Source of the DNA: a virus
Taxonomy: Duplodnaviria > Heunggongvirae > Uroviricota > Caudoviricetes
Reading direction: 5' to 3' (one strand)
DNA: 64,000 nucleotides
Virus record (IMG/VR): IMGVR_UViG_3300028888_000043
Span: 9,756 to 73,755 of that record
Shown here: positions 19,502 through 57,832 of the stretch, one piece after another
Layout: the number at the start of each line of letters is the position of its first letter
How positions within the stretch are numbered: position 1 is the stretch's first letter
The notes under the pieces: model-generated
Databases searched by the model: none
What the model saw: only the letters and a program-made list of their open reading frames with translations
What the model was told of the DNA's origin: nothing
Translations under genes and position numbers: made by a program

Positions 19502-19699
19502 ATGAGTATCTGGGCAGACATGCACCGTAGAAGTAACGGTGTACAGGAAAGAAAGGAGAACAAGATAAAGGAATGGGATGATGAAATCACTTGGCCTCAT
19601 GTACTGAAAGTATATAGCAAAACCATTTCCGGTAATATTGTATCAGTACAACCAATGTCCCCACCAATAGGTAAGTTATTTTATACAGATTTCAAATGA
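19502..19699 (+). CDS. MSIW-leader family member 1 (65 aa)
   Basis: N-terminus MSIWADMHRRSNGVQERKE. Confidence 0.6.
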   Translation: MSIWADMHRRSNGVQERKENKIKEWDDEITWPHVLKVYSKTISGNIVSVQPMSPPIGKLFYTDFK

Positions 19700-19863
19700 G
19701 TATCTGGGCAGACATACACAGAAGAAGTAATGGTCTTCAGGAAAGGAGAGAAGATATCCTTGCGAGAATAAAGTATCAGGAATATCTTTCATACTTGAAA
19801 AGTCCACAAAAATTTATGGATGAATATGTAGTTATTTTTCCTCCACATTCTAACAAAGAATAA
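19696..19863 (+). CDS. MSIW-leader family member 2 (55 aa)
   Basis: MSIWADIHRRSNGLQERRED...; ATGA overlap; below ORF-track cutoff. Confidence 0.45.
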   Translation: MSIWADIHRRSNGLQERREDILARIKYQEYLSYLKSPQKFMDEYVVIFPPHSNKE

Positions 19864-19864
19864 T

Positions 19865-20257
19865 ATGAGTATCTGGAGAGACATACATAAAAGGAGTAAT
19901 GGTCTAACACAAAGAAAGGAAGACCAGATTGATAAGAGTCCTTATGCAACAAGGGCAGATGTTGAATCCATCATACAACCAATCACATATGCTGGAATTG
20001 TAAACTCACAAAGTCAATTACCACAGTCGGCAGCAGTAGGGGCAATCTTCTATGCCCAGGGTACTGGTGAATTTTATATCTACACCAATAATGGTTTTGA
20101 GTTAATCTCATCTGTAACTACTTGCGACAATAATTTGGATTATATTGATGACTCCATTGGTCAACCTATTAAACCATTTGAACCCACTATCGTATCTGTT
20201 GAAACAAAAAATGGAATTTATTATGAAACTATCTTTAGAGAACATAACTATCAATGA
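19865..20257 (+). CDS. MSIW-leader family member 3 (130 aa)
   Basis: MSIWRDIHKRSNGLTQRKED. Confidence 0.6.
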   Translation: MSIWRDIHKRSNGLTQRKEDQIDKSPYATRADVESIIQPITYAGIVNSQSQLPQSAAVGAIFYAQGTGEFYIYTNNGFELISSVTTCDNNLDYIDDSIGQPIKPFEPTIVSVETKNGIYYETIFREHNYQ

Positions 20258-24037: not shown

Positions 24038-24040
24038 GAT

Positions 24041-24742: not shown

Positions 24743-24743
24743 G

Positions 24744-35072: not shown

Positions 35073-35077
35073 CTGAA

Positions 35078-35112
35078 AAAGACTCACCAACAAGTGAGTC
35101 TTTCTTTTATTT
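35078..35112 (+). terminator. Rho-independent terminator
   Basis: AAAGACTCAC-caacaa-GTGAGTCTTT then CTTTTATTT. Confidence 0.6.
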
Positions 35113-35163
35113 GTCATTCCCCATAAATACCTATATAGTATCAGAAAACTAATTCTAAACAAT

Positions 35164-37656: not shown

Positions 37657-37658
37657 TA

Positions 37659-38441
37659 ATGTCATCCATACTTTGTAAAGTAAATGATAGTTGGGTGCCT
37701 ACATCAAAATATTATAAAAAACAAAATGGAGAATGGGTGGAGATAAGTTATCAAGTATTTGAAAATTATGTTGAGACTTTATCTCCATTCATTTATCAAG
37801 GTCATACCCAATCCGAAACAGGTCCTGTAGTAGTCGATGAAACATATGACCCATCTAATCCTCCGGCACCAAATTCAGATGTCATCTATACCAACACTCC
37901 AGGTAGTCCAGAAGTGAAGACCAGTTCATCTGGAGAAGTCATTGAATACACATTCACAGATACATCCGGAAATACTACAAGTGATGTTGATACAGGCATA
38001 ATTGCCTTTGATAGCAACAACCCTGGCTGGACTCTTCATCTGGTCGTGGAAATGACACCAAATACAAACAACAACAAGAACATAATTGAAGCATATAACA
38101 CCACAAATAGGAGAGGACTGTATATATACACATCAGACAACTACCTGTACAAGAAAATACAGACAGCAAACTACAGCACCAACTCTTCATATGTAGCCTG
38201 GTCAAGGTTAAGTCCAACCGGTAAAGACTCAAATTACTATAAGACTTTGAACACCATCACATTTGATATAACATATACAAATGATAAGAAATTATCACTA
38301 TATGTAAACAATGTGGCACACTTTGAAAACTTCGATGTAGATGACACTACATTCCAAAATCTTACCATCAAAGTGGGTGTTGGAATGAGTGGATTTAATA
38401 TAAAAGAATTCACTGTTGTAAGAACAAATGTGAACACATAA
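37659..38441 (+). CDS. fibre-associated structural protein (260 aa)
   Basis: N-terminus KVNDSWVPTSKYYKKQNGEWVEI shares a motif with the C-termini of the next two genes. Confidence 0.5.
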   Translation: MSSILCKVNDSWVPTSKYYKKQNGEWVEISYQVFENYVETLSPFIYQGHTQSETGPVVVDETYDPSNPPAPNSDVIYTNTPGSPEVKTSSSGEVIEYTFTDTSGNTTSDVDTGIIAFDSNNPGWTLHLVVEMTPNTNNNKNIIEAYNTTNRRGLYIYTSDNYLYKKIQTANYSTNSSYVAWSRLSPTGKDSNYYKTLNTITFDITYTNDKKLSLYVNNVAHFENFDVDDTTFQNLTIKVGVGMSGFNIKEFTVVRTNVNT

Positions 38442-38467
38442 ATAATTATATTATAAGTGATTAACCA

Positions 38468-40852
38468 ATGAGCAGACCTGTAAACATATCAGATACTCTG
38501 ACATTCAATCCTACCGGTTATACTGGTGCATACAATATGTCATTGTCCAATCCGACCAATGGATATCATGGTTCAGATTGGACATCAAATTATGCAACAA
38601 TAACTTTAAGTAGTACAACATCTGGATATGTATATTTCACATTTACAATTTCTGATATACCTTCAAATGCAACAATTACAAGTGTAACTTGTTCTGTAAG
38701 AGAACGTGCAAATCAGAGTAACCGTGTATCCAATGCATCAATACAATTATATAGCAATACAACTGCAAAGGGTAGTGCTACAACAACATCATTATCCACA
38801 AATGCCACAGTTTATAATATCACAAATGCAGGAACATGGACAGTATCAGAATTAAGTAACATAAGGTTAAGGATTAATGGTCGAAAAGCAAATACCCAAA
38901 ATTCAGGAAATATTCGTTTCTATGGTGCAACTCTCTCAATAACCTATTCCATCCAGGGGACTGAATATGAAATCATCTCCACACTCAGTACTGATGATGT
39001 GGACTCCATTGATCCTGCCGGACTCACATATGTAATGGGTGGTGATGGTTATGAACTGAATATTTATACAGACAGCCTGGATGATATAAATGTATTGGAC
39101 AATGATGTGGATGTGACAAGTCAACTTGTACTTACTCATTCAACAGGAGAGTCATCCACAGACACTTTCATCCCAACATCATATGATTCCAACAACTCAT
39201 CATATGACAGTATCTATGAAGGTTCACCCACAAATGGTCTTACTGCTCACACAGATTCAAACAGAATATGTGCTTATGTCACACAGACCGCCTATGCAGA
39301 GGCAAGACTCACTTACAATTTTGACTGTTCTTCAATCCCACAAAATGCAATAATCAGTAGTGTGACCTGTATTGCTAATGCCGCTTGTTTCAGTAATGGA
39401 CAATATTTTGACACCAAGACACTACAACTATATTCAGGAAGTACTGCAAAGGGTTCAGCAGTAACAATAACTGGAACAGGAAATACAAGTACAAGTCATA
39501 ACATTAATGGAGGGTCCTGGACCAGGGCTGAACTTGACAATGCCAAAATTGTTGTTTATATACAAAGAGGAAACGACACAACACAGGCATCCTTCTCATT
39601 CTGGGGAGCAACATTGTCCGTTACTTACAGTCTACCTGCTGATGACTATTATGTCTACACTCTTTCCAATGTCAGTGCAGACCATACCATCATCATAGCA
39701 AATGCCATCATAGAAATCCCAGAGGAGGATCCCCAGTATGACTACTACCCGATAACCATATCCAGTATCAATGCTTCCACCACGCCTGGTCGTGGTACGG
39801 TTCGCATCGTAGAAGGAACAAACCAAACAATCACCATCTACCCGGATGACCCGCAACTCACACTGGCGACAGACAATGGAACAGACATCTCCAACCAGTT
39901 GGTCCAGCATGGTGGCACAATACCTGACCCGACAGTTGCGACTGCGACCGGCGCATCATATGGATTCACACTGAACAGTTCAACAGGATATTATACATCT
40001 ACAAACAATGGTGTGAATTCATCAGCTGCTGTCTGCCATGTGACTTTCAATTTACCAGTGAGATGCCTTGTCACCATCAATTACATCAACTATGCAGAGG
40101 CAACTTATGATTTTGGTGTATTTGGAAACATTGATACTGCATTGAATACAAACAACTATGCTGCCGGTTCAAATGGTGCGACCATAACAGATACAAATTA
40201 CAAACTTGCTTGTAACACGTCTTCATACAATACAGCATCAGTACAAACCATTACATATGAGATTCCTTCTGGACAACATTACATAGACATCAAGTATTCA
40301 AAAGATGATGCAACTGCTTCAAACAATGACTCCCTCCAGTGGAAGATCGCATCCATAGAACCCCTGGAGAACAACAACTATTACACATACACACTGTCAA
40401 ACATTCAGGAATCACATTCCCTGATATTTGTCTTTGGTAATATCTCCTACTACTTTGTGAACTCTTCCAGTTCAGGTGCCAAGCTCTATCCGAATGGATC
40501 AATGGTCCATCTCCAGGGTGACTCCTACCGCCTGACAATAGTGCCTGATGACTACACATACAATGTCAGTGTGACAGACAACAATGTCAATGTCTCCTCC
40601 CAGGTGCAGAGAAAGGAAGAGCAGGTGACAAAGGAAGGGAACACCTACACTGTGGTGAACTTCATATACACTCTAAACAACATCCAGGCAACCCACAACA
40701 TAGTGGTCATCTGCACCGCAAGTGAGTCACTTCACCTGAAAGTGAACAACAGTTGGGTGAGGGTGTCAAAAATCTACAAGAAAATCAACAATGTCTGGAC
40801 AGAGGTCACCCTGGATTCACTCACAGAACCAAGCATTTACATAAAAAAATAG
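38468..40852 (+). CDS. large fibre/structural protein (794 aa), S/T/N-rich
   Basis: paralogous segments with 40902 gene; C-terminal KVNNSWVRVSKIYKKINNVWTEV. Confidence 0.55.
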   Translation: MSRPVNISDTLTFNPTGYTGAYNMSLSNPTNGYHGSDWTSNYATITLSSTTSGYVYFTFTISDIPSNATITSVTCSVRERANQSNRVSNASIQLYSNTTAKGSATTTSLSTNATVYNITNAGTWTVSELSNIRLRINGRKANTQNSGNIRFYGATLSITYSIQGTEYEIISTLSTDDVDSIDPAGLTYVMGGDGYELNIYTDSLDDINVLDNDVDVTSQLVLTHSTGESSTDTFIPTSYDSNNSSYDSIYEGSPTNGLTAHTDSNRICAYVTQTAYAEARLTYNFDCSSIPQNAIISSVTCIANAACFSNGQYFDTKTLQLYSGSTAKGSAVTITGTGNTSTSHNINGGSWTRAELDNAKIVVYIQRGNDTTQASFSFWGATLSVTYSLPADDYYVYTLSNVSADHTIIIANAIIEIPEEDPQYDYYPITISSINASTTPGRGTVRIVEGTNQTITIYPDDPQLTLATDNGTDISNQLVQHGGTIPDPTVATATGASYGFTLNSSTGYYTSTNNGVNSSAAVCHVTFNLPVRCLVTINYINYAEATYDFGVFGNIDTALNTNNYAAGSNGATITDTNYKLACNTSSYNTASVQTITYEIPSGQHYIDIKYSKDDATASNNDSLQWKIASIEPLENNNYYTYTLSNIQESHSLIFVFGNISYYFVNSSSSGAKLYPNGSMVHLQGDSYRLTIVPDDYTYNVSVTDNNVNVSSQVQRKEEQVTKEGNTYTVVNFIYTLNNIQATHNIVVICTASESLHLKVNNSWVRVSKIYKKINNVWTEVTLDSLTEPSIYIKK

Positions 40853-40880
40853 AGAGCCTTTTAACTCTCTATTTTTTTTT
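40850..40880 (+). terminator. Rho-independent terminator
   Basis: TAGAGAG-ccttttaa-CTCTCTA then T9. Confidence 0.7.
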
Positions 40881-40901
40881 GAAATTATCCATAAATAATT
40901 T

Positions 40902-42788
40902 ATGAGTCAAAGAGTAATAGATACAACACAAACAGTAACATTCGTACCGGTATCCAGGGACAGAGAAAATAGTAATTTCTATTCCTGGACTATCGGTGGT
41001 GGATCTGGACCATTCCGCGCGGCCGATGCAAGTTCTACTACCAATTATGACACTCTACAATATGTGAGGACAACCGGCGCAGATTCTTATTTTTATTATG
41101 ACTTCAATGTCACCGGAATTCCATCATCGAATGTACTTATAAATTACATAGGCGGTAGGGTACAAATCCGTGTCGCCAATACATCATCATCATACTTTCA
41201 GGTAAAAGAAGTATATTTCACCAACCAGCTACAGAAGCTGACAAGTTCCGGTAACATAAATTCAGCATTGGCACAGAACATAGTCACCATCCCGTCTTAT
41301 GATGATTCCGGCTTGGAGGATTTGGATTTGAATGACATCAAACTGTGTGTCCATCTCGTAAAAGGAACTTCAAACAACAACTCATCAGCATATATCTATG
41401 GCGCAAACCTGGACATCAATTACTCCACATATCATTATGAGTATGACATCACTGTTCTGAACAATACTGACAAAGTGTCAGTGACAGGTGACTCATATAC
41501 TTTATCAGAAGGACAGTCGCAGACAATCTCGTTCGTAATCGCCAATCTCAATGCCATCGCTATCGAGGACAATTTCCAGGACATCAAATCACAACTGGTC
41601 AACACAACCGGGAACACATATACTTATACCATCTCGAATATAGATGATGATCACATCATCACCTGTGAAGACCGGGCGATAGACATCAGTGATGAGGATC
41701 CCAATTATGATTACCACACATTGTCCATTTCAGGAATAAACATCAGTACCGTGCCGGCATTCGGGTCACACAGATATGTGGATGGCAGTAATGTGGTCAT
41801 CAATCTCAATCCTGATGAACCAAATTTGAAACTGGCATTGGACAATGGTGTAGACATCTCAAACGATTTGGTCATCACATCATCATACACCTACACATAT
41901 ACAACATCCAATGTCTCTGGTACTACTTCCTGGACAAACAACAATGGTGTATATTCAAATGGAAATGCTGGAAACAACAGTACAAGATCAACAATACAGT
42001 TCAACTTCAATACGAGCATTCCCTGTCTGGTGACTTTCTATTACTGGGGCGCACTGACCGGAAACGATGCCATCTGCTTTGGAAATCTCAATCAGACCCT
42101 GACAACGGATGGCACACAGGATTCAGCATCAATAAGAAAACATTGGAAGGGCGGCACATTCACATATGCTGAAGCGGATGCATTTGCAGTAAGTTACGAG
42201 AATGTTGAAGGATCCAATTTCGTCCAGGTGAAGGTGAGAAGAAACAACAACACAAGCGGAGCAAGTTACCACACTGCATATGTGAGAGTGGAAATCACCC
42301 CGATGGTACCCGAGACATATCAGTATACTATCTCAAATATGGACACCGATCATTCGCTGGTGTTCGTCTTCGGTGATGTGGTTTATTACACTGTCCAGGA
42401 AACGACATCCCTCACCGGATTAACCGTCTTCCCGACAGGATCCTGGGTGGTACTTCCTGATGATTCATACAAACTGACAGTGATACCGGACAATTCCCTC
42501 ATCCAGTTGGAAGTGGAGGACAACGGAACCACACAGCAGATGGAAAGAGTCGAGTATGTGAATGATAATGATGATGTTATCATCAATTATGTGTATAAAT
42601 TGTTTAACATAAATGAGAATCACATCATCAATATCGTGGAGAAAACACCGGATGTGAAATTATATATGAAGATAAATGGTATATTCACAGAGGTATCGCA
42701 AGTATATAAGAAGATAAATGGAGAATGGATGCCACAGGAAGATATCCTGAATCTGTTCGGGTCAAATGTTGTTTATATAAGCAAGTAA
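40902..42788 (+). CDS. large fibre/structural protein (628 aa), paralog of 38468
   Basis: shared blocks (YTYTLSNI..H.L.FVFG..YY.V......L...P.GS.V.L..DSY.LT..PD); C-terminal KINGIFTEVSQVYKKINGEWMP. Confidence 0.55.
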   Translation: MSQRVIDTTQTVTFVPVSRDRENSNFYSWTIGGGSGPFRAADASSTTNYDTLQYVRTTGADSYFYYDFNVTGIPSSNVLINYIGGRVQIRVANTSSSYFQVKEVYFTNQLQKLTSSGNINSALAQNIVTIPSYDDSGLEDLDLNDIKLCVHLVKGTSNNNSSAYIYGANLDINYSTYHYEYDITVLNNTDKVSVTGDSYTLSEGQSQTISFVIANLNAIAIEDNFQDIKSQLVNTTGNTYTYTISNIDDDHIITCEDRAIDISDEDPNYDYHTLSISGINISTVPAFGSHRYVDGSNVVINLNPDEPNLKLALDNGVDISNDLVITSSYTYTYTTSNVSGTTSWTNNNGVYSNGNAGNNSTRSTIQFNFNTSIPCLVTFYYWGALTGNDAICFGNLNQTLTTDGTQDSASIRKHWKGGTFTYAEADAFAVSYENVEGSNFVQVKVRRNNNTSGASYHTAYVRVEITPMVPETYQYTISNMDTDHSLVFVFGDVVYYTVQETTSLTGLTVFPTGSWVVLPDDSYKLTVIPDNSLIQLEVEDNGTTQQMERVEYVNDNDDVIINYVYKLFNINENHIINIVEKTPDVKLYMKINGIFTEVSQVYKKINGEWMPQEDILNLFGSNVVYISK

Positions 42789-43691: not shown

Positions 43692-43763
43692 AAAAGTCAA
43701 GATTCTTTGAAACTTTTTCCAGGATTACAGGTATTATATAGTGAACCTTTAGAAGACACAGAC

Positions 43764-44588
43764 ATGATTAACTACACCAACATCACAGAGAACATCAACA
43801 TCTATTTCCGTGAAATCCGCAAGTTCCAGAACATGACCAAGGAAGATGAGGATATCCTTTTCTTCCGGGTGTCTCAGGGAGACAACTCTGCCGTCACTGA
43901 AATCTTCAACAAGATGGCGAAGCTCGCAGTCGCAACTGCAAAGACCTATACATCCGACCCAGACCTCCTTCAGGATCTCATCCAGGAGGCAAACTGCGGA
44001 ATCCTGGAGGCCATCCGGAAGTTCAACCCTTCAATGGGCTTCCGCTTCTCCTCCTATGCCCGCTGGTGGATGAAGGCGAACATCTCCAAGTTCCTTAATG
44101 AGAGCATGACTGTCCATCCTTCCAATGGGAGACTGATAATCATCGCCAAGAGAATCCGCCAGGAGTTCTTCAAGGAGAACCAGAGGGAAATCACCGAGTG
44201 TGAACTGATGGATCTCCTGGAAGAGAGAGGAGAGGTAGTCACTGACATCACCGCCATTTTGTCAGTCACTGTCGACAGTATTGACAAAGTGTCAGGTGAC
44301 GATGACAGCACCTTTGAGCAGTCCAAACTGTTCAACTCCAGGTCCGCCATCGACAATGACTATCTGTGTGTGGAGGAGAATGAGAGTCTCTCCGATGACA
44401 TTGATGGTCTGCTGAACAGACTCACCATCCGTGAAAGGACTATGGTGAAGATGAAGTTCGGTATCGGCTTTTCCGAGATGGAATATCCCGACATCGCCAA
44501 GAAGTGGGCAAGGATGACCGGTGAGAAGGTGATGAGTGCGGAGAGAGTCCGTCAGATCGTGGTAGGCGCTCTCAAAAAAATGAAGTAA
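43764..44588 (+). CDS. sigma-70 family RNA polymerase sigma factor (regions 2-4)
   Basis: DLIQEANCGILEAIRKFNPSMGFRFSSYARWWMKANI (region 2.1-2.4); LTIRERTMVKMKFGIG...SAERVRQIVVGALKKM (region 4.2); ATG start (track start 43707 is TTG). Confidence 0.75.
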   Translation: MINYTNITENINIYFREIRKFQNMTKEDEDILFFRVSQGDNSAVTEIFNKMAKLAVATAKTYTSDPDLLQDLIQEANCGILEAIRKFNPSMGFRFSSYARWWMKANISKFLNESMTVHPSNGRLIIIAKRIRQEFFKENQREITECELMDLLEERGEVVTDITAILSVTVDSIDKVSGDDDSTFEQSKLFNSRSAIDNDYLCVEENESLSDDIDGLLNRLTIRERTMVKMKFGIGFSEMEYPDIAKKWARMTGEKVMSAERVRQIVVGALKKMK

Positions 44589-45442: not shown

Positions 45443-45823
45443 ATGATCAGGAAGACCGGAGAATACTCCAAGATGAAGAAAATGGATCTATCCAAGTGGG
45501 TGGTGACCAAGTTCTACCACTACACATCCTGTGCAAGGGATGTCTTTGCCGAGTATGATCCATTCTGGCATGAACCTGCCTGGGGTGACCCCTATGTGAA
45601 AGAGGTGTATGACCATTTCCTGAAATGTGCCGATGCCTACCTCAACTATCCAAAGATAGATTTTGCATCCCTGGGCAACCAGAACAAGACAACCATAGAG
45701 ATTTTCAACATCAAGACCGGAGAGAAACTATACCTCACCCAGTATGACGGCCGCTACTCCATCGGCAGGGATGTGTGGAGTGAGTTCGGTTATGTAACAG
45801 AATTTGGAATCATCAAGAAATGA
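45443..45823 (+). CDS. hypothetical protein (126 aa)
   Basis: ORF; ATGA overlap with next. Confidence 0.45.
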   Translation: MIRKTGEYSKMKKMDLSKWVVTKFYHYTSCARDVFAEYDPFWHEPAWGDPYVKEVYDHFLKCADAYLNYPKIDFASLGNQNKTTIEIFNIKTGEKLYLTQYDGRYSIGRDVWSEFGYVTEFGIIKK

Positions 45824-46191
45824 GTGTCTGGGCAGACATACACAAGAGGAGTAACGGCACCACTGTCCGGAAAGAAGATCTTCCCCAGGGGTATGATCCA
45901 ATCCTGGAAGAGAGGATGAAGAAGTATGAAGAGGAGAGGAAAATAGAGGTGGCAAAAGCAGAGAAAGAACAAAGGTTCCTGGACATCTGGGACAGTATCT
46001 GTCTTGCTATGGTCATCATCATGATTTTCTCTTCTGTAGTGACTGTAACCTGTGTCTTGATGTATGGTAATTATTTACCCATCTGGCTGATGGTGATCTT
46101 TTGTTCGTCCGCATTCGCCAGTATGGTAATGTCCATTGGTGGAATGTATTTCAATGATATGAGAAGTCATATACGAAAATATCTGGAATGA
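45820..46191 (+). CDS. MSIW-leader family member 4 (123 aa; C-terminal 2 TM)
   Basis: MSVWADIHKRSNGTTVRKED; hydrophobic C-terminal half. Confidence 0.6.
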   Translation: MSVWADIHKRSNGTTVRKEDLPQGYDPILEERMKKYEEERKIEVAKAEKEQRFLDIWDSICLAMVIIMIFSSVVTVTCVLMYGNYLPIWLMVIFCSSAFASMVMSIGGMYFNDMRSHIRKYLE

Positions 46192-46445
46192 GTATCTGGT
46201 CTGACATACACAGAAGATCCAATGGTCTTGCCATCAGGAAAGAGGATGACATCCAGCAGGAACCGCCGATAATAGACCTGGACTTTTCATCCTTATATCC
46301 AAGGACCATAATCTTTGATCATCCGGAATCACTGTCTGATGGTTCAGGTCAGAATCATACACAGGCAGACTTTGATGAGTTGTTGAAAAAATATTTAAAA
46401 GAATTAAGAGATGAGCGTCTGGGCAGATATACACAAGAGGAGTAA
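46188..46445 (+). CDS. MSIW-leader family member 5 (85 aa)
   Basis: MSIWSDIHRRSNGLAIRKED. Confidence 0.55.
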   Translation: MSIWSDIHRRSNGLAIRKEDDIQQEPPIIDLDFSSLYPRTIIFDHPESLSDGSGQNHTQADFDELLKKYLKELRDERLGRYTQEE

Positions 46446-46932
46446 CGGTGTCTCCTTGAAAAAAGAGAAGGTCGTCTTCAAGGAGATGGTCTATTCTTCT
46501 TACAGGGAAATTGAAATCATTGCCCGCAATGTCTACAAGGGAGTCGAGTACTTTGTTGTGAACATCGGAATCCATCCCTGTGCATATGTGGTCTGTGAGA
46601 AGGAATTCCTTGACAAGCATAGAGATGAATGGGGTGACATCGATGGCATCAGTGTCCATGGAGGAGTGACCTATACTGGAAAACTCTCTGCTCTATCTGC
46701 TTTCGATGATGACCTGGAGCTGGAAGATGTATATTGCTTCGGTTGGGACTATGGCCATTGCGGCGACTGGTCAGGATACCTGACTGACTTCCAGAATGGT
46801 GAAAACAGGAAGTATGATACTTGGATGGTGGTTGATGATTGCAAGTCTGCCATCGACCAGTACCTGGAAAAGAAGAAACAGGATGACTCACTGGCAACCC
46901 TGACCTACACCGGATCATACTGGGTGGCATAA
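46411..46932 (+). CDS. MSIW-leader family member 6 (173 aa); C-terminal domain paralogous to stand-alone gene 46998-47684
   Basis: MSVWADIHKRSNGVSLKKE; shared GIHPCAYVVC..VHGGVTYTG..CFGWDY..DW domain. Confidence 0.6.
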   Translation: MSVWADIHKRSNGVSLKKEKVVFKEMVYSSYREIEIIARNVYKGVEYFVVNIGIHPCAYVVCEKEFLDKHRDEWGDIDGISVHGGVTYTGKLSALSAFDDDLELEDVYCFGWDYGHCGDWSGYLTDFQNGENRKYDTWMVVDDCKSAIDQYLEKKKQDDSLATLTYTGSYWVA

Positions 46933-46939
46933 ATATCAG

Positions 46940-46974
46940 AGGCGATGTCAAGGCATCGCTTTTGTTATATTTAA
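46940..46974 (+). terminator. terminator hairpin plus class-B element TTTTGTTATATTTAA
   Basis: GGCGATG-tcaagg-CATCGCT then TTTTG. Confidence 0.55.
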
Positions 46975-46997
46975 ATGATATAAAAGTGTTTCAGGTT

Positions 46998-47684
46998 ATG
47001 AAGGAAATCATCTACAACCATCAGCCCAATTTCTTCGAGATAGTTGATGAGGGTGAATACAAGGGTGTGAATTACATCTGTATCAACAGGGGAATCCATC
47101 CGGCAGCATGTGTCATCTGTGATGAGAGGTTTCTCAAGAAGCACACCAGTAAGGGAGGTATCATAGAGTGCATCACTGTCCATGGAGGGATGACCTATTG
47201 TGGTGACATCAGTAAGGTGAAGCAACTTGAGGGTCACACTGGTCATTGCTTTGGCTGGGAGTACAACAGGAACAATGACTGGGCCGGATTCTGGACAGAT
47301 GAGGAGAACATCAAGGCGGGCAACCACAAATGGACAACCAAGGAACTGGTATATGACTGTCACCGGGCTATCGACCGCTACCTGGAGATTATGGAGAAGG
47401 ATAATATCCTCGACCCGGTGACCAGTCCGCTCATCACCAAGGATGATCTCAAGAACCTGGGATTCCACTCCATCTATGAGATGATGAAGAATGATGAGGA
47501 GAGTGCCTTCCAGTTAAATGGAGTCAATGATGGGAACAAGTGGTCCATCTATGTGGATCTCCAGACTCCCAGTCTGTCCTATGCCAGGAATCAGAGTCCG
47601 AGAAGGAAGTATGAAGGAAGTATCCTGACTATGGAGGAACTCCGGATGGTGGTGGATCTCTGTGACATCCCTATAGATATTTGA
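46998..47684 (+). CDS. hypothetical protein; paralog of the C-terminal domain of MSIW member 6, lacking the leader
   Basis: GIHPAACVICDERFL..VHGGMTYCG..CFGWEY..DWAGFW; ATG start (track start 46962 is TTG inside the class-B element). Confidence 0.5.
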   Translation: MKEIIYNHQPNFFEIVDEGEYKGVNYICINRGIHPAACVICDERFLKKHTSKGGIIECITVHGGMTYCGDISKVKQLEGHTGHCFGWEYNRNNDWAGFWTDEENIKAGNHKWTTKELVYDCHRAIDRYLEIMEKDNILDPVTSPLITKDDLKNLGFHSIYEMMKNDEESAFQLNGVNDGNKWSIYVDLQTPSLSYARNQSPRRKYEGSILTMEELRMVVDLCDIPIDI

Positions 47685-47691
47685 CGAATCT

Positions 47692-47718
47692 GCGATTATG
47701 CGATTGCGGCCAGAATTT
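47692..47718 (+). repeat. TGCGA tandem-repeat element (CTGCGATTATGCGATTGCGG)
   Basis: same element family as 29545, 42794, 49152, 61516, 63034. Confidence 0.6.
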
Positions 47719-49195
47719 CATCTGTAATTGCATAAATCTTTTTCTTATATGAACTCCAACCAGCAGCGGCCTTATAAGCATCCACAGATTCTGCTGGAAC
47801 ATAGTAGCCACTCACCATATACCATTGAGAACCATTTCCAGTCGCTTCCCTTGTAGGAGGAGTAGTTGCAAGACATACCACCTTGAGACCATTTGCAGCA
47901 TACTGACCTGATCTATCACCGATATATGTCAAAGTAGAAGGGAAGACAATGTACTGACAGACCTCATTGTTCTTGTCATACCAGGGACAGACCTGTGTGT
48001 ATGCACCATTGTCCATCTTTGCCATAAAATCCCTGAACGATCCGGCCATCAGTTTGGTGACACCTTCCGCTATCTTGACTACATTCTGCTTTGACAGACC
48101 ATAATCAGCACCGCCATAACAGATAGTTCCATCCTTGGAGTAGACAATGTTGTTGACTGCTTTGAAGTTTGGATTGTTTTCATCTATGGTGATGGTCTCA
48201 AGCATATCCCAGAAGACGTCATTGTATTGACCGGTATAATCTGCGCCATTACCCAGTGTCTGAAGTCTTTCACCAATGTGTATCTCTCTCGGTGAAAATT
48301 GATTTGAAAACACTTCTTCACCAAACAACATCAATCTTGGAAGGTTCAATATCTCCTGGAATTTACCTGGATATGTATCATAGATATTGGAAAATGCGCC
48401 GTGACCTATATATGTAAGAGTATCCGGGAGTAATTGAGTACCTCCTGGAATACCTGATGTCTGGGCATATCCTATACTTGAACCAGCAAAAGCATAATTC
48501 TGGATAACATTCAATCCCTGGTTCATATTCACATGGGACAATTCACCACAGAAGGCGAACGCCTGTACGCTCACCTGCTTCAGTGTGGACGGGAAGGTAA
48601 TCTCCTTCAGTTTGCTGTTCCTGAAACAGTAGTTTCCGATTATCATCATACTTGGAGGAAGAGTTATACTCTCAAGGTCATATGCACCGAAGAATCCACC
48701 CTGCTTGGCTGCCTGTTCTTCATATGTGGTGTCTGTGAAAGTGGTCTTCGTGACATTCACAAAGAACTGGAACTCATCAAAATGCTTCAGGTTGGCAAAA
48801 GTGAGAGACCTGTAACCTCCAGGTGTGGATGAATCCGACACAAGTATGTTGGCTGCATTGAATGAATCATTTGTAACAGCAATCGCCTGGTCAATGGTCA
48901 TGAATGTGTCTGTCTGTCCCACCCAACCGGCATTCCTGGCGATTTCCATCGCTTCCGGGTTGGACTGGTTGGTCATTATCTTCCTGTAGAAGATTTTCTT
49001 CTTCCATTTTTCTGTGTCTGTCGTCTTCAATGTACACAAAGTAGGATAGTTCACCGGGTTTTCCGAGACATCTTGGATGTATTCATCCACTGTATTGTAT
49101 TCTTTTAAATACTTCATAACATAATAGTCCTTTATATTATTTATGACCTTTCTGCGAATCTGCGACTGCGATATGCGATAGACTGAAATCCACAT
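47696..49195 (-). CDS. BspA-type leucine-rich-repeat protein (499 aa), minus strand
   Basis: repeated I(G/Q)NYAF..C..L..I.(L/F)P units (ITLPPSMMIIGNYCFRNSKLKEITFPSTLKQV...); both ORF ends lie inside TGCGA-repeat elements. Confidence 0.55.
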   Translation of the reverse strand: MWISVYRISQSQIRRKVINNIKDYYVMKYLKEYNTVDEYIQDVSENPVNYPTLCTLKTTDTEKWKKKIFYRKIMTNQSNPEAMEIARNAGWVGQTDTFMTIDQAIAVTNDSFNAANILVSDSSTPGGYRSLTFANLKHFDEFQFFVNVTKTTFTDTTYEEQAAKQGGFFGAYDLESITLPPSMMIIGNYCFRNSKLKEITFPSTLKQVSVQAFAFCGELSHVNMNQGLNVIQNYAFAGSSIGYAQTSGIPGGTQLLPDTLTYIGHGAFSNIYDTYPGKFQEILNLPRLMLFGEEVFSNQFSPREIHIGERLQTLGNGADYTGQYNDVFWDMLETITIDENNPNFKAVNNIVYSKDGTICYGGADYGLSKQNVVKIAEGVTKLMAGSFRDFMAKMDNGAYTQVCPWYDKNNEVCQYIVFPSTLTYIGDRSGQYAANGLKVVCLATTPPTREATGNGSQWYMVSGYYVPAESVDAYKAAAGWSSYKKKIYAITDEILAAIA

Positions 49196-49228
49196 AATCT
49201 GATGGTGGATTTTTTTTGTAAAAAAGTG
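49152..49228 (+). terminator. TGCGA repeat x4 plus GACTGAAATCC plus hairpin plus T7 plus GTAAAAAAGTG
   Basis: AATCCAC-ataatctgatg-GTGGATT then T7. Confidence 0.6.
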
Positions 49229-49274
49229 AAGAAATATTTGGCGGTCTCGTTTTTTCTTTGTATCTTTGTAACAG
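49229..49274 (+). promoter_or_regulatory. class-A consensus promoter
   Basis: GAAATATTTGG...TTGTATCTTTGTAACAG. Confidence 0.55.
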
Positions 49275-49293
49275 AAACAAGAGAGATACTGAA

Positions 49294-49446
49294 ATGAACA
49301 AGGTTTACATCTACAAGAAGAACTGCAACACCGGTGATACTAAACCTTATACCTATGTCAACTCCGAGGAAGATGCAAAAAGTACAGTCAGTGAACTGAA
49401 CCGCTGGGCACCTTATCCCTACACTTATTTCTATCTTCCTAACTAA
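49294..49446 (+). CDS. hypothetical mini-protein (50 aa)
   Basis: first ATG after promoter (MNKVYIYKK...). Confidence 0.35.
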   Translation: MNKVYIYKKNCNTGDTKPYTYVNSEEDAKSTVSELNRWAPYPYTYFYLPN

Positions 49447-49457
49447 AAAAAAGGCAA

Positions 49458-49501
49458 GAAATATTTGGATATTACAGAAAAAAGTATTATCTTTGTAATA
49501 G
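49458..49501 (+). promoter_or_regulatory. class-A consensus promoter
   Basis: GAAATATTTGGATAT...TATTATCTTTGTAATAG. Confidence 0.55.
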
Positions 49502-49517
49502 AAAAAGAGACATAACC

Positions 49518-49739
49518 ATGAGAGTTGAAATCATCACCAAGAAAGACAAGAAAGGTTGCACTACCGAGTCCTATCAGTTCAGGGTCGACCAGGACATCAA
49601 AGCTGCCAATGGCATCCAGGTGGAGAAATCTGTCTATGGGAAGAACTTTGAAATCGACTACTCCAAGGACAAGGCAACCTGGTGGTGGAATGCCCTGCCT
49701 AACATGAGGACCGAGACCGACATTATCTATAAAGACTAA
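49518..49739 (+). CDS. hypothetical protein (73 aa)
   Basis: ORF after promoter. Confidence 0.45.
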   Translation: MRVEIITKKDKKGCTTESYQFRVDQDIKAANGIQVEKSVYGKNFEIDYSKDKATWWWNALPNMRTETDIIYKD

Positions 49740-49752
49740 AAATACAGATACC

Positions 49753-50331
49753 ATGAATTACAATTACCTTTCCGATTCAGAGAAAATCCTCATTGTCCTT
49801 GACAAGATGGGAGCAGTATCCCCCGAGACCGCAATCACCACAGAAGAGATGGTGGGAAAGGGTATCGAACTGGGAATGACAAAAGAAGTTCTCACTGACA
49901 ACTGGCATGGTCACAAGGAAGGTGATCATCCCTGGTGGCTTCTCCTGGCGGCCATGTCCGGCACAGGTTCCGAAGAGGAAGTGGCCAAGCACAATGTCCC
50001 CTACCTCCACCGCCAGAAAGTCCAGAGGATGAAGAATGGCCGCAAGACCAAGGTGATGGTGTACTGGTATGATGAGTCCTACACTCATGAAATAACCTAC
50101 ACCGGAAAGGAATACAAGCAGAAACTGATCCGCCAGCAGGAAATTAAGGACATCCTGGAAAAAACCAAAGGACTTCCCAAGTCCAAGGAGGAGAGGATGG
50201 AGCAGATGAGGAGAGATCCCAACTATGTGGAGATTGACGGAAAGTTCTACACTGCGAAGTTCGTCATCGCACATCCGGAGAAGTTCAACCCGGTGATGGT
50301 GATGATGGTGCAAGAGAACATCAACAGATAA
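49753..50331 (+). CDS. hypothetical protein (192 aa)
   Basis: ORF. Confidence 0.45.
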   Translation: MNYNYLSDSEKILIVLDKMGAVSPETAITTEEMVGKGIELGMTKEVLTDNWHGHKEGDHPWWLLLAAMSGTGSEEEVAKHNVPYLHRQKVQRMKNGRKTKVMVYWYDESYTHEITYTGKEYKQKLIRQQEIKDILEKTKGLPKSKEERMEQMRRDPNYVEIDGKFYTAKFVIAHPEKFNPVMVMMVQENINR

Positions 50332-50336
50332 GAGAT

Positions 50337-50675
50337 ATGGATTACAATGAAATCAAGAAGAGATTGGGGATGAACTCCAGAACAGAGACTGTCAAGTGCA
50401 GTTGCTGCGGCAAGGAGCTCACTGTCCCCAATATGTACAAGAGACAGGACCTGGACATCCTAAAACCCTACTGTGGTGCAGCAACCGTGCTCACTATCCA
50501 GTGGATGATTCATCACGGGTGGCACATCACCGCCCTGGATGATGAACACAAGAGTCGTTTCTACTGCCCAGACTGTTTCCTGGAAGGAACACCGGAGTAC
50601 CAGGAAGCACCTTATGCAAAAGACTGGTGTGAGCAGGCCGGAGAGTGGATGAAGGAGAATGATGGCAAGCAATGA
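50337..50675 (+). CDS. Cys-rich Zn-finger-like protein (112 aa)
   Basis: CSCCGKE...YCG...YCPDCF. Confidence 0.4.
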   Translation: MDYNEIKKRLGMNSRTETVKCSCCGKELTVPNMYKRQDLDILKPYCGAATVLTIQWMIHHGWHITALDDEHKSRFYCPDCFLEGTPEYQEAPYAKDWCEQAGEWMKENDGKQ

Positions 50676-50908
50676 GCATCTGGGCTGACATGCACAGGAG
50701 ATCCAACGGTACTTCCATCAGGAAGGAAGATAAGGTGATTCCTGAAAAACCACAGGAGAACTGTATGCATGGTAGACCGTTGAGTTATGATTACGGGAGT
50801 AAAATCTACAAGACATACACCTGTGATTTTGGGAGTAAAATCTACAAGACCTCAGATCTTGATGACATGTTGGACAATTTAAAGAAGGATTATTATTTCT
50901 TTTACTAA
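50672..50908 (+). CDS. MSIW-leader family member 7 (78 aa)
   Basis: MSIWADMHRRSNGTSIRKED; C-terminus contains duplicated SKIYKT motif. Confidence 0.55.
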   Translation: MSIWADMHRRSNGTSIRKEDKVIPEKPQENCMHGRPLSYDYGSKIYKTYTCDFGSKIYKTSDLDDMLDNLKKDYYFFY

Positions 50909-50934
50909 TTAGTTTAACCCCTAAAATATTTAAT

Positions 50935-51540
50935 ATGCTTCAGAAAGTAAGCAAGGCCAATATCAAGGCCATCAACAACATTCTTCAGCAGCAGGCGCAA
51001 CTCGGAATCATCCTCGGGGTGACCAACATCCAGCAGAACCGCTATATGCGTGACTGTTCCACTGGCGAGATGGTGGGTGTCGACAAGATGAACACCGACC
51101 TCCATGGCTGGGATGGCATCTTCAAGAATGGAAAGTACTTTGAGAACAAGAACGTGAAGGTAAATGCCAAGGCAGGTACTTCCTACTCCCTCACTTTCCG
51201 TGACACCTCCGCTGGAAAGCTCATTGAGATGACCGATGGTGTCATCGCTGTCCAGTCCTTCTGGGGAGATGACGGCAAGCGTGCCTTCTCTATGGTTGGT
51301 AACACCAACTATGTCGGTGATTACCTGGAGGAAGCCTGGAATCCTGACTCCAGGTACACCACATCTGTCAGCATGTCCCGCTGCCTCAAGCGTGGATTCA
51401 AGCTGGTCGCCGGCACTTACACCAAGCAGCAGGTCATCGACACCATCAAGGAGAAATTCCCCCGGCTCGGCAGTACCCTGACACCTGCTGACATCTACAC
51501 CGAGAAGCAGGCCAAGAAACTGGTTGCATCAATGATGTAA
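50935..51540 (+). CDS. hypothetical protein (201 aa), C-biased codon usage
   Basis: ORF. Confidence 0.5.
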   Translation: MLQKVSKANIKAINNILQQQAQLGIILGVTNIQQNRYMRDCSTGEMVGVDKMNTDLHGWDGIFKNGKYFENKNVKVNAKAGTSYSLTFRDTSAGKLIEMTDGVIAVQSFWGDDGKRAFSMVGNTNYVGDYLEEAWNPDSRYTTSVSMSRCLKRGFKLVAGTYTKQQVIDTIKEKFPRLGSTLTPADIYTEKQAKKLVASMM

Positions 51541-51542
51541 TC

Positions 51543-51603
51543 TTCTGCGGTCACGAACTGCGAATACCAGGGGACTGAAAAAAAGTGGAAAAAAGTCCCC
51601 TGG
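51543..51603 (+). terminator. degenerate TGCGA element plus long-loop hairpin overlapping the -33 region
   Basis: CCAGGGGACT-16 nt-AGTCCCCTGG; no T-run. Confidence 0.4.
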
Positions 51604-51645
51604 AAATTTGGAAAATCCGGAAAAAAGCATTATCTTTGTAACAGA
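51601..51645 (+). promoter_or_regulatory. class-A consensus promoter
   Basis: GGAAATTTGG...GCATTATCTTTGTAACAG. Confidence 0.5.
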
Positions 51646-51760
51646 AAGGAAGACATAAAGGTTCATACCGCAACAATCGCCAAAAGATGTTAAAGTAAAC
51701 AAGAAACCCTTTGGAACCTTGTTAACTATCTTCCTAATGAACCAAAAAAGAGTAACAGTC

Positions 51761-52009
51761 ATGAAAAAAGTCACTGCCGAAGAACTGCACAAGATGCTCT
51801 GCCAGGGAACTGTCAAGTTCCAGTACACCAAGAATGACGGTTCGGTCCGCACCGCAGTCGGAACCCTCAAGTCCTCCCTCATCACACGGAAGCCCGGCGG
51901 CGGAGAGAACAAGGTCAAGGGTGCAGGGTACACCACATATTTCGATCTGGAGAAAGATGCATTCCGCTGCTTTGCAGAGTCCAAACTCCTGGGTGTGATT
52001 GAGAAGTAA
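51761..52009 (+). CDS. hypothetical protein (82 aa); stand-alone paralog of the C-terminal domain of MSIW member 8
   Basis: VKFQYTKNDGSVRTAVGT...GYTTYFDLEKDAFRCF..LLGV; start uncertain (ATG 51719, 51737 or 51761). Confidence 0.4.
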   Translation: MKKVTAEELHKMLCQGTVKFQYTKNDGSVRTAVGTLKSSLITRKPGGGENKVKGAGYTTYFDLEKDAFRCFAESKLLGVIEK

Positions 52010-52029
52010 ATCATCAAAAGGAGAAAGAT

Positions 52030-52572
52030 ATGAATCTCGTCACAGTCACACTCGACATCAGTTGGGATGAATCTCCCAAGTATGTCATCCCTACATCCAA
52101 CTTCCACAATGCCTACATCATCGGTGTCCCCTGCAAAATCCTGGCCTCCCCGTATGTCGGGAAATGGACCAACTATGTCCGCACCAGGATGACAAAGCTC
52201 ATCGATATCCAGTCCTGTGTGACAGGTATCAAGTACACCATCCCATATGAGTGGGTAAGGTCTTTCAAGTCACTGGTGGACGCCAATGACCAGGCCGAGA
52301 TTATCGGGCATCACTTCCCGGAGGTGACAGACCTCATCGGAAAACCCTACTGGCCCAGGGATGACTCCTATATCTCCGACCTTGACGGCAATTCCTCTGG
52401 AAGACTTTTTCATCAGCGGTGCGAAATCGTCTCCGTCCCGTTTGATGACACTATCAAGGATATGGTGGGTAAGGACATCACATATAAGTTCATCCTGGTG
52501 AGATATGAGGGAAAAATCTACAGAACTCTCTTTCAGGAATATGCACTCTATGAACCGGAGAGTCGATGGTGA
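52030..52572 (+). CDS. hypothetical protein (180 aa)
   Basis: ORF. Confidence 0.45.
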   Translation: MNLVTVTLDISWDESPKYVIPTSNFHNAYIIGVPCKILASPYVGKWTNYVRTRMTKLIDIQSCVTGIKYTIPYEWVRSFKSLVDANDQAEIIGHHFPEVTDLIGKPYWPRDDSYISDLDGNSSGRLFHQRCEIVSVPFDDTIKDMVGKDITYKFILVRYEGKIYRTLFQEYALYEPESRW

Positions 52573-52633
52573 ATTTATGATTTATGAATTGCAAATCGCT
52601 ATAAATACTGTATACAATCAAATCCAGTAAACT

Positions 52634-53017
52634 ATGAGCATTTGGTCTGACATGCACAAGAAGAGCAATGGTGAATTCCGTAGGGAAGATGCTTTCATCT
52701 TCCAGGAGATCACTCCGGAAGAACTTGCCAAGATGTTCACCAAGGGTATCGTGCATTTCAAATACAGGAAGAAGGCGAAGAAAGGTCAGCCCTGGGACAG
52801 CGGAGTCGAGAGAGAGGCCTGGGGGACCAAGAATATGAGTGTGGTCTCCAAGATTCCTCACGGAGGTTACTGTCCTCCAAAGCAGGCTGGTTACACTATC
52901 TACTTCGATGTGGAGAAGGCAGACTGGAGAGCATTTTCCGATTACCTGCTGCTTGGTGTCTGTTCACATATCTTCACAGAAGAAGAGTACACTAAATTCA
53001 TCAATAATGAAATGTAA
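52634..53017 (+). CDS. MSIW-leader family member 8 (127 aa)
   Basis: MSIWSDMHKKSNGEFRRED; C-terminal IVHFKYRKK...GYTIYFDVEKADWRAF..LLGV domain. Confidence 0.6.
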   Translation: MSIWSDMHKKSNGEFRREDAFIFQEITPEELAKMFTKGIVHFKYRKKAKKGQPWDSGVEREAWGTKNMSVVSKIPHGGYCPPKQAGYTIYFDVEKADWRAFSDYLLLGVCSHIFTEEEYTKFINNEM

Positions 53018-55790: not shown

Positions 55791-56141
55791 ATGAAATGGA
55801 CTGACATTTGGAGACCTCCCTTCCGGAATGACCACTATGGTTATATCTGGGACAGAGACAATGTGATGACATTCAGTGTAGATGATCTCACAGAGGAGAA
55901 TGACCGGCAGATGCAGGACTTCTGTGACAACCTGGTCAAGGCGCTGAATGGTGAGGAGTGCATGAAATATCCTGATCTCCAGGTGAAGGATGGATGTGAC
56001 CTGTACAGAGGAGAGGAACTCCTGGGATCCTTCAGAGGATGGGGACATCTCACCGGTGGGTTGAAGATGAAACCGGAAGAAGCGGCCGCTGTCCAGGATC
56101 AGCTGATTAGTTTTGCATTGGACAAGATTGCAGAGAGATGA
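55791..56141 (+). CDS. hypothetical protein (116 aa)
   Basis: ORF. Confidence 0.45.
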   Translation: MKWTDIWRPPFRNDHYGYIWDRDNVMTFSVDDLTEENDRQMQDFCDNLVKALNGEECMKYPDLQVKDGCDLYRGEELLGSFRGWGHLTGGLKMKPEEAAAVQDQLISFALDKIAER

Positions 56142-56377
56142 GTATCTGGGCGGACATACACAAGAGAAGTAACGGGTTCAAGCTGAAAGCAGAGGACAGG
56201 GTATCTGTGAAAGCAGAGACATTTGACGATTTCGTGAAGATTCTTGAAGATGCATATACAGCAGGAGATGAAAGCCGTGTTCAGATGATTTTTATCGCTA
56301 ATCCCAAGTATAGCAGAATATATGACATTGATGCCCTGATGAAAAATCTCAAATATAAAAAGTCATTAAATTTATGA
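56138..56377 (+). CDS. MSIW-leader family member 9 (79 aa)
   Basis: MSIWADIHKRSNGFKLKAED. Confidence 0.55.
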   Translation: MSIWADIHKRSNGFKLKAEDRVSVKAETFDDFVKILEDAYTAGDESRVQMIFIANPKYSRIYDIDALMKNLKYKKSLNL

Positions 56378-57190: not shown

Positions 57191-57396
57191 GTGTTTGGAG
57201 AAAGATGCATGAACATTCCCTTGGTGAACCGAGGAAAGAGGATACCATACAACCAGTAACCTGGAAAGCATATATACAGATGGCCGGGCAAATGAAAGAA
57301 CTCAAAATGAGAATCCAAGTCTTGGATAAGGAAATGAAGAAACTTGCGAAATTAAATAATAAATTGTATCATGAGTGTTTGGACAGATCTACATAA
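57187..57396 (+). CDS. MSIW-leader family member 12 (69 aa, degenerate leader)
   Basis: MSVWRKMHEHSLGEPRKED. Confidence 0.45.
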   Translation: MSVWRKMHEHSLGEPRKEDTIQPVTWKAYIQMAGQMKELKMRIQVLDKEMKKLAKLNNKLYHECLDRST

Positions 57397-57832
57397 AAAG
57401 AGTAATGGGATTACAGTGTCCCAGGAAGACTTCCATCTTATATACGGTGAAAGGGATGATGTAGACACCCTCTGTGAAGAGAATTACAAGGATGGGACAT
57501 ACGAGGTGAAGACCAATGGGATGTACCCCTTCCTGGAGATCATCTTCAACAGGGGACTCTCCATCTTCTCCGGAAAGGATGTGGTCAGACTGAAGTCTGA
57601 CTCCGGAGAGTATTATGACCTGGGAAGATATTACGGTGATGGACATACTGTCTTCAACTATTGGTTCAACAAGCCGGAGGATTATATTGGGACAGGATCT
57701 GACCCGGAAACGATGATTGTGAAACCTCACCCTGGTCACAAGTATACACTGGATGAACTGAAGCAGATTGCCGAGATGTTCATTGACCTGATTCACCAAT
57801 GTGAGAGTGAACTGACCAATCATATGGAGTAG
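57371..57832 (+). CDS. MSIW-leader family member 13 (153 aa)
   Basis: MSVWTDLHKKSNGITVSQED. Confidence 0.55.
   Translation: MSVWTDLHKKSNGITVSQEDFHLIYGERDDVDTLCEENYKDGTYEVKTNGMYPFLEIIFNRGLSIFSGKDVVRLKSDSGEYYDLGRYYGDGHTVFNYWFNKPEDYIGTGSDPETMIVKPHPGHKYTLDELKQIAEMFIDLIHQCESELTNHME

Follow-up and report, generated by a model that had tools for sequence, protein, structure and literature searches.

The DNA considered here, referred to as the window, is a stretch of 64,000 nucleotides from a virus of the class Caudoviricetes (IMG/VR record IMGVR_UViG_3300028888_000043, positions 9,756 to 73,755), and the element in question is a conserved leader peptide of about 20-22 residues, hereafter the tag, that stands at the N-terminus of otherwise unrelated small proteins. 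The window lies at about 9.07-73.07 kb of contig Ga0310697_10000001 (410,934 bp; Joint Genome Institute (JGI) sample 3300032030). A preliminary description of the sequence had noted that two protein domains each occur once with and once without the leader, and had argued that the leader has a dedicated function rather than a structural role in the domain. The four genes concerned, named below by their start coordinates, are as follows.

46411..46932, + strand: tagged protein of 173 residues; the tag is codons 1-22 (46411-46476) and the remainder (the cargo) is a single phrog_2164-family domain
46998..47684, + strand: untagged paralog of 228 residues, the first ~142 of which are homologous to the 46411 cargo
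51761..52009, + strand: untagged WYL_2 paralog of 82 residues, which leads off behind a Bacteroidetes-type promoter at 51590-51653
52634..53017, + strand: tagged protein of 127 residues; the tag is 52634-52699 and the cargo is a WYL_2 (Sm-like SH3 beta-barrel) domain

Two domains occur with and without the tag

In BLASTP alignments with compositional adjustment, the proteins encoded by 46411-46929 and 46998-47681 share 61 of 146 residues (42%, E = 4e-35), and those encoded by 52634-53014 and 51761-52006 share 36 of 87 (41%, E = 1e-20). Both similarities are real and far above chance, and the shared motif strings quoted in the preliminary description are all found in the two alignments. In each pair, Met1 of the untagged protein aligns with residue 23 of its tagged counterpart, and the leader is therefore a discrete N-terminal add-on of 22 residues.

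Domain assignments agree with this boundary. The Pfam family WYL_2 (PF10902, gathering threshold 26.7 bits) matches the 51761 protein with 68.6 bits and the 52634 protein with 43.4 bits, and in the tagged copy the match covers residues 29-102 and does not include the leader. The sole match of the pair 1 cargo in Pfam and PHROGs is phrog_2164, a family of unknown function. The 46998 protein has an additional C-terminal domain that the tagged 46411 copy does not have. Structure prediction for the 46411 protein with AlphaFold2, from an alignment of 46 sequences, gave a mean predicted local distance difference test (pLDDT) score of 86.8 and a predicted template modeling (pTM) score of 0.80 overall. 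Confidence is high in the cargo (pLDDT >90 for residues 23-160) and low in the leader (about 56 for residues 1-20), which is modeled as a helix at residues 3-11 followed by coil; the model thus places the tag outside the cargo fold. The proposal of a dedicated rather than structural role is upheld by the untagged paralogs, which start right at the end of the leader, and by the occurrence of the same leader on unrelated cargo in 250 protein clusters (see below). The leader is a separable module under its own selective constraint and not part of the cargo fold.

The tag family in the window

A search of the six-frame translation with a profile of the leaders found 13 tag copies in the window, all on the + strand, starting at 19502, 19696, 19865, 45820, 46188, 46411, 50672, 52634, 56138, 56374, 57014, 57187 (degenerate) and 57371. 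The leader family recognized at the outset is thus genuine but larger than its original numbering implied. The copies are clustered at 19.5-19.9 kb (three), 45.8-46.4 kb (three), 50.7 kb, 52.6 kb and 56.1-57.4 kb (five, including the degenerate one). Their consensus is M-S-[IV]-W-x-D-[IM]-H-[KR]-[KR]-S-N-G-x3-[RK]-x-E-D, with M1, S2, W4, D6, H8, S11, N12 and G13 invariant among ten aligned copies. The cargo parts, about 35-150 residues long in the window and up to ~240 in related loci, are mutually unrelated, and when all 13 were compared with the window by tblastn the two pairs described above were the only tagged/untagged pairs. Each tagged gene of the window encodes one cargo; tagged polypeptides with several disparate domains occur only in relatives (e.g., proteins P0025, P0034, P0075 and P0068).

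The tag is selected as a peptide

Nucleotide comparisons among the window copies set sharp limits to the conserved stretch. The 90 nucleotides upstream of the tag ATG are 26-29% identical, which is the background level, and conservation starts exactly at the ATG. Codons 1-13 (39 nucleotides) are 78% identical, and identity is back at background by codon 21. Within this stretch the invariant residues are encoded by synonymous codons: Ser2 by AGT or AGC, Asp6 by GAC or GAT, His8 by CAC or CAT, Ser11 by AGT, AGC or TCC, Asn12 by AAC or AAT in a 5:5 ratio, and Gly13 by GGT, GGC or GGG. A wider comparison was made with the tags of L003, a phage contig with a guanine-plus-cytosine (GC) content of 32% as against 45% for the window lineage. 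From S2 to G13 the amino acids are 79% identical and the third codon positions 44%, and Ser2 is encoded by AGY in one lineage and by TCN in the other. These comparisons show that selection acts on the tag as a peptide and not as DNA.

Old duplications and a probable single gain of the tag

Relatives of the window were located by a DNA-pattern scan of metagenomes. In contig L019 a tagged copy of the 46411 family is followed by an untagged copy, and in contigs L015 and L020 an untagged WYL_2 gene lies immediately upstream of a tagged one. Across the relatives, orthologs are 67-94% identical and paralogs near 40%. Both pairs are old duplications that have been stably retained side by side in diverged relatives.

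Contig L020 is a diverged, syntenic relative of the 45.4-57.4 kb part of the window. It has the two-domain untagged gene of the 46998 type only, without the tagged 45820/46188/46411 trio and without tagged genes 56138 and 56374. Because they are absent amid shared synteny, the tagged genes act as insertions or deletions between conserved neighbors.

The 46411/46998 family comprised 61 cluster representatives, of which the 16 nearest to the 46411 protein are tagged and the rest are untagged two-domain proteins of ~227 residues. A neighbor-joining tree built from cargo-only columns places all tagged proteins in one clade nested among the untagged ones, which points to one addition of the tag, to a duplicate of a 46998-type gene. 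The pattern indicates a single gain of the tag accompanied by loss of the C-terminal domain, then decay of the tag in some lineages; decayed tags inside the tagged clade include MSIWANINKRSEG and MSLWAEIQNQASG, and degenerate examples are found among P0177-P0184. The preliminary description had taken the pairs to capture gain or loss of the leader on the same cargo within one genome, and had suggested a survey of related phages. The survey recovered the pairs in L015, L019 and L020, and a single gain is supported for the 46411 family, but the duplications are old and the window does not catch a recent event in the act.

Tagged proteins in other genomes

Searched against 1.84 billion representatives, the tag profile matched 250 clusters at E<=1e-3, and the clusters that were looked up are all metagenomic and without informative names. 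Neither Pfam nor PHROGs contains a family for the tag, for the modules of the AT-rich relatives or for the basic C-terminal domain described below. Searches of GenBank phages (50,697 records) returned no tblastn match to the tag consensus or to a two-module relative and no megablast match to 20 kb of the window, and a degenerate DNA pattern of the tag had 0 matches in IMG/VR. Protein P0006, which is identical to the 19696 protein, is recorded on three contigs, the longest of 411,604 bp.

A junction census combined the 150 best-scoring of the 250 clusters with the proteins of another search, for a total of 165 motif-bearing proteins and 279 tag copies. Seventy-eight of the proteins start with M-S, as in the window, and in 75 a presequence of 6-16 residues comes first, in every case with Glu as its last residue (examples are MIPDFKTYIGE, MKKLSKIDE, MSKFYEHITE, MVKSFKEFIGE and MGIIKSYSEFIGE). 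Long proteins with two to six internal tag copies account for 63 of the 165, with a median copy spacing of 151 residues. At the 124 internal junctions, Glu occupies P1 in 123 cases and Ser occupies P1' in all 124; V, T, I, M or L stands at P3 in 121, and Asn at P2 in 92. The possibility that multi-tag proteins are a gene-calling artifact of an alternative genetic code was considered and rejected, as L003 10001-12151 is an uninterrupted open reading frame (ORF) under translation table 11 that encodes P0025.

The contigs that carry polyproteins are large (118, 171 and 401 kb), with UvsX-like, SbcD-like, DnaB-like and Cpn10 genes aboard, and AT-rich, with a GC content of 32-33% in the two loci measured (L003 and L021). 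At least 26 polyproteins end in a conserved lysine-rich domain of ~100 residues, directly preceded by h-x-E (h, hydrophobic), with the pattern ECDGVPGG..GGMG..GSGD..KKKKKKFRKEDE..YVDDYR.YVDR.Y (L003 10001-12151; L021 10001-12757; P0248-P0269). Stand-alone proteins with this domain have presequences that resemble the capsid-targeting sequence (CTS) of phage T4, namely MKENEKNLNE, MVNNLKNIKE and MIKNWDEFINE, each followed by Cys. The lysine-rich domain is a candidate basic internal head protein. DUF7487 genes, which contain repeats and may be homing-endonuclease-like, flank the polyprotein gene (L003 8924-9973 and 12267-13370; L021 6309-7505).

Recognizable cargo of tagged proteins includes GNAT acetyltransferases, BspA-type leucine-rich repeat (LRR)/DUF285 proteins, Lcl_C and an M15 peptidase. 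Four tagged proteins of 249-262 residues contain HE(A/F)MHAFFD, an HExxH motif like that of zinc metallopeptidases (L005 11972, - strand; L009 7956, L016 4885 and L017 5197, + strand), and had no match in Pfam. These cargo types look like host-directed effectors.

A putative signal for head loading and injection

What is the tag for? We propose that it directs proteins into the phage head for delivery along with the DNA, apparently working only when it is the free N-terminus, a reading that draws on sequence features and on analogy with characterized phages, and to which we assign a probability of about 45%. More tentatively, the tag may be a previously unrecognized, widely shared loading or ejection signal of huge gut and rumen phages that is active only as a free Ser-[IV]-Trp N-terminus.

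Under this proposal, a prohead protease of the T4 gp21 type would, in the AT-rich jumbo relatives, cut after [VTIML]-x-E, right before the tag Ser. Such cleavage would occur both within polyproteins and in proteins that carry short CTS-like presequences, and each module released from a polyprotein would begin with the tag Ser. In the phage of the window the tagged proteins are encoded by separate genes that start with Met-Ser. Methionine aminopeptidase removes Met before Ser, and Met excision would yield the same Ser-[IV]-Trp end without a protease. The exposed tag might bind the scaffold or inner body, the portal or tail channel, or some target in a cell that has just been infected. WYL_2 and 46411 in their tagged forms would then be copies delivered by the virion for use as soon as infection begins, with their untagged twins made later in the cell.

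Since the presequences and junctions fit the T4 pattern closely, the proteins of the AT-rich jumbo phages are predicted to be head-internal and cut by a prohead protease; cleavage at the h-x-E/S junctions, packaging and injection are what we infer from these sequences. The presequence varies from 0 to 16 residues in length and the tag is constant, which suggests that the function lies in the exposed N-terminal tag and that the presequence can be dispensed with.

The T4 CTS (MKTYQEFIAE) is removed inside the prohead, and proteins fused to it are encapsidated (PMC8442874). The internal proteins of T4 are a diverse anti-defense set with the CTS alone in common (PMC3012670). The T4 protease gp21 and the prohead proteases of giant phages cleave after Glu, and sites in T4 Alt include ITE-6 and LTE-619 (PMC5694885). 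Like the CTS on IPI, IPII, IPIII and Alt, the tag is a short conserved N-terminal peptide on unrelated proteins of fast turnover, and the tagged loci are likewise plastic between conserved neighbors and carry cargo that looks host-directed. Presequences of the relatives such as MVKSFKEFIGE and MIKNWDEFINE resemble the T4 CTS itself, and their predicted junctions are hydrophobic-x-Glu, as are the Alt sites. Unlike the CTS, which ends in (L/I)-x-E and is removed, the tag follows the predicted cut and would stay on the protein. The tag also has no sequence similarity to the CTS, starts in the window at Met-Ser without a presequence or site, and is repeated in the polyproteins of relatives; its packaging role would be a parallel to that of the CTS deduced from sequence.

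The twins have a counterpart in T4 as well. Alt is packaged and injected, and its paralogs ModA and ModB, which are likewise ADP-ribosyltransferases, are made after infection (PMC5512222, PMC2988021). Both cases involve one domain in two versions per genome, with and without a (putative) virion-targeting N-terminus, although the domains here are WYL_2 and an uncharacterized phage domain, and the localization of the twins is a prediction.

Polyvalent proteins (Iyer et al. 2017, PMC5512222) offer a further parallel, as the polyproteins of the relatives join two to seven disparate modules that, by analogy, would enter with the DNA and be cut into active pieces. Unlike polyvalent proteins, the modules of the window are separate small genes, and the junctions consist of a repeated 20-mer and h-x-E, with no embedded zincin-like peptidase; of the polyvalent-protein domain families, a Pfam scan of the tag proteins found only GNAT (and LRR/DUF285 repeats), in few members. 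The ejection proteins gp53 and gp54 of phage SPN3US and the inner-body proteins of phiKZ are diverged paralogs with identical N-terminal propeptides, and a gp21-related protease cleaves them after Glu (PMC5694885). Their site is A/S/G-x-E, and the propeptides are removed and are not common to unrelated folds. The tag is also unlike the leader of a precursor of ribosomally synthesized and post-translationally modified peptides, as the cargo consists of folded domains where assessed (pLDDT >90 for the 46411 cargo; WYL_2 in the 52634 protein) and the tag occurs inside polyproteins too. N-terminal targeting of polymorphic phage effectors is a known kind of system, and this tag, itself undescribed, would be a member of it with three novelties relative to the T4 CTS, namely its position downstream of the predicted cut, its repetition in polyproteins and its bare Met-Ser start.

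Several observations weigh against a role in loading and injection. The tag was seen in no cultured phage, either in the GenBank phage records or with the IMG/VR DNA pattern. Nothing precedes the tag in the window, which has neither a CTS-like presequence nor an h-x-E site there, and the conserved E19 of the tag is in an [RK]-x-E context with a basic rather than hydrophobic P3. Across the 74 kb read of the ~411-kb genome (the window, L001 and L022), genes for a head protease, capsid or scaffold did not turn up; reading on for 10 kb past the right end of the window, on the ~411-kb contig, uncovered no more tags and no head genes. The operon neighbors of tagged genes are non-structural (a sigma-70-family gene, a nucleotidyltransferase and an FKBP isomerase), and expression timing is uninformative because host-type Bacteroidetes promoters precede every operon of the window. 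The membrane-like character of one tagged protein, 45820, would be unusual inside the head. Finally, the mechanism cannot be a simple copy of that of T4, as the tag is downstream of the predicted cut and retained while the T4 CTS is upstream and discarded.

Alternative roles for the tag

The main alternative, which we consider rather unlikely, is that the tag is a cytoplasmic short linear motif for docking or regulation that brings diverse proteins together at one hub of phage or host origin (for instance a chaperone, a protease adaptor for timed degradation, or a replication/transcription factory), with no packaging involved. The twins would then differ in recruitment or degradation. Such a role would suit genes that sit in operons of non-structural genes behind host-type promoters, proteins that in this phage have no presequence or protease site before the tag, and a membrane-like member of the set. 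A predicted short amphipathic helix followed by coil is typical of docking peptides, and the decay of the tag in lineages that keep the cargo also accords with this role. A docking motif would nevertheless leave unexplained why [VTIML]-x-E stands before the tag and Ser at P1' at the junctions of the relatives (123-124 of 124), and why there are T4-CTS-like presequences and a basic C-terminal domain resembling an internal head protein.

Those same junctions raise the possibility, which appears improbable, that the tag is a mere primed-side recognition element of a polyprotein-cutting phage protease and a functionless leftover in the phage of the window. The tag does strictly adjoin the predicted h-x-E/S sites in polyproteins, and degenerate tags exist (57187; P0177-P0184). 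A leftover is hard to reconcile with 12 of the 13 window copies being well conserved, with synonymous variation at the invariant residues, since this pattern means that purifying selection acts where no upstream cut is possible. In addition, 78 representative clusters begin directly with M-S, and h-x-E followed by Cys precedes the basic C-terminal domain, which has no tag; the predicted site can thus do without it.

An export or membrane-targeting signal is very improbable. The N-terminal position, the basic pair (H-R-R or H-K-R) and the membrane-like tagged protein are what would be expected of one, but the tag recurs inside long polyproteins and is charged or polar throughout, without the hydrophobic core of ~10-20 residues that would follow the basic residues in a Sec, Tat or lipoprotein signal (read from the sequences). 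Moreover, the type IX secretion signals of Bacteroidota are C-terminal.

Least probable of all is that the conserved stretch acts as nucleic acid, either as a translation-coupling or initiation element or as a recombination site for cassette shuffling: all 13 copies begin with ATGAG, seven of the 13 overlap the stop codon of the upstream gene (ATGA), the DNA is 78% identical over 39 nucleotides and the tagged genes behave as insertions or deletions between conserved neighbors, but the invariant residues differ in codons, including AGY/TCC and AGY/TCN serine switches, third positions are 44% identical against 79% for amino acids between lineages of 45% and 32% GC, the tag also occurs far inside ORFs, and the upstream DNA is unconserved. 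The ATGA overlap may add coupled translation, but it cannot account for the conservation of the tag.

If the tag is a loading signal, a profile of 20 residues would list the injected effector repertoire of uncultivated megaphages (>250 protein clusters), and phages would be seen to retain matched injected and resident copies of one domain. As these megaphages are uncultivated and most of their genes are unannotated, a searchable tag would provide a computational handle on their first-strike arsenal, the marked class being proteins that are probably delivered with the DNA. The tag would also be a candidate peptide for packing heterologous proteins into large capsids. Twins with and without the tag, together with the split-gene and polyprotein forms, constitute a clear natural experiment on the gain, retention and loss of targeting signals.

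Other tagged genes and genomic surroundings

The remaining tagged genes of the window are listed below; an ATGA overlap refers to the overlap of the tag ATG with the stop codon of the upstream gene.

19502..19699, + strand: tagged protein of 65 residues; opens a tandem trio
19696..19863, + strand: tagged protein of 55 residues (identical to P0006); ATGA overlap
19865..20257, + strand: tagged protein of 130 residues (MSIWRDIHKRSNG...)
45820..46191, + strand: tagged protein of 123 residues with a charged linker and a hydrophobic C-terminal half; ATGA overlap
46188..46445, + strand: tagged protein of 85 residues; ATGA overlap
50672..50908, + strand: tagged protein of 78 residues; ATGA overlap
56138..56377, + strand: tagged protein of 79 residues; ATGA overlap; not in syntenic L020
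56374..56628, + strand: tagged protein of 84 residues; ATGA overlap; not in L020
57014..57190, + strand: tagged protein of 58 residues
57187..57396, + strand: degenerate-tag protein of 69 residues (MSVWRKMHEHSLGEPRKED), profile score 15.9 bits; ATGA overlap
57371..57832, + strand: tagged protein of 153 residues

The C-terminal half of the 45820 protein contains two membrane-helix-like stretches, as read directly from the sequence. The cargo of the 19502 protein contains IVSVQPMSPPIGKLF, a sub-threshold Pfam match (E = 0.005) to the start of the T4 Gp23 capsid family; a search of solved structures gave no confirmation of a Gp23-like cargo, and the match was not used as evidence.

Sixteen copies of a Bacteroidetes-type promoter element precede operons of the window, all on the + strand. 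The element spans ~60 nucleotides and consists of AAAAA..ATTTGG, a spacer of ~20 nucleotides and then TTGTATCTTTGTAA(T/C)AGAAA; it matches the Bacteroidetes promoter consensus of TTTG at about -33 and TAnnTTTG at about -7.

8408, 11084, 18218, 26282, 26835, 29581, 29962 and 42845, + strand: promoter element, intergenic repeat
49214, 49447, 51590, 54610, 57888, 61560, 63053 and 63676, + strand: promoter element, intergenic repeat

The operons were delimited from the element that precedes each of them. Together with the BspA-type LRR genes, these promoters suggest that the host belongs to the Bacteroidota. A T4 late-promoter motif (TATAAATA) upstream of 52634 was also considered as evidence of timing and was dropped, as three were found against 1.8 expected and the motif is not enriched.

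The sigma-70-family protein encoded at 43707-44588 (Sigma70_r2, E = 2e-13) is in the same operon as the 45820/46188/46411 trio. The operon of the 19502 trio is headed by a gene at 18281-19084 for a protein of 267 residues that matches the PHROG transposase family phrog_10081 (E = 6e-72). Around that trio, the region 14668-25400 holds an RNA-repair and tRNA cluster with R2K and RNA ligase domains, an RlaP-type nucleotidyltransferase, Thg1 (tRNA-His guanylyltransferase) and an HD phosphohydrolase. Downstream of the 46998 gene, an ORF of 499 residues at 47696-49195 on the - strand is the sole long minus-strand ORF within a + strand region; it has no counterpart in L020 between the homologs of 46998 and 49753 and looks like a recent insertion. 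Five successive ORFs, four of 628-830 residues and one of 260 residues, occupy 32691-42788. Those at 32691-35072 and 35164-37656 have extensive internal and mutual repeats (families D1, D5 and D8-D16), and the first contains BspA-type LRR_5 repeats; the group may be surface or receptor-binding proteins.

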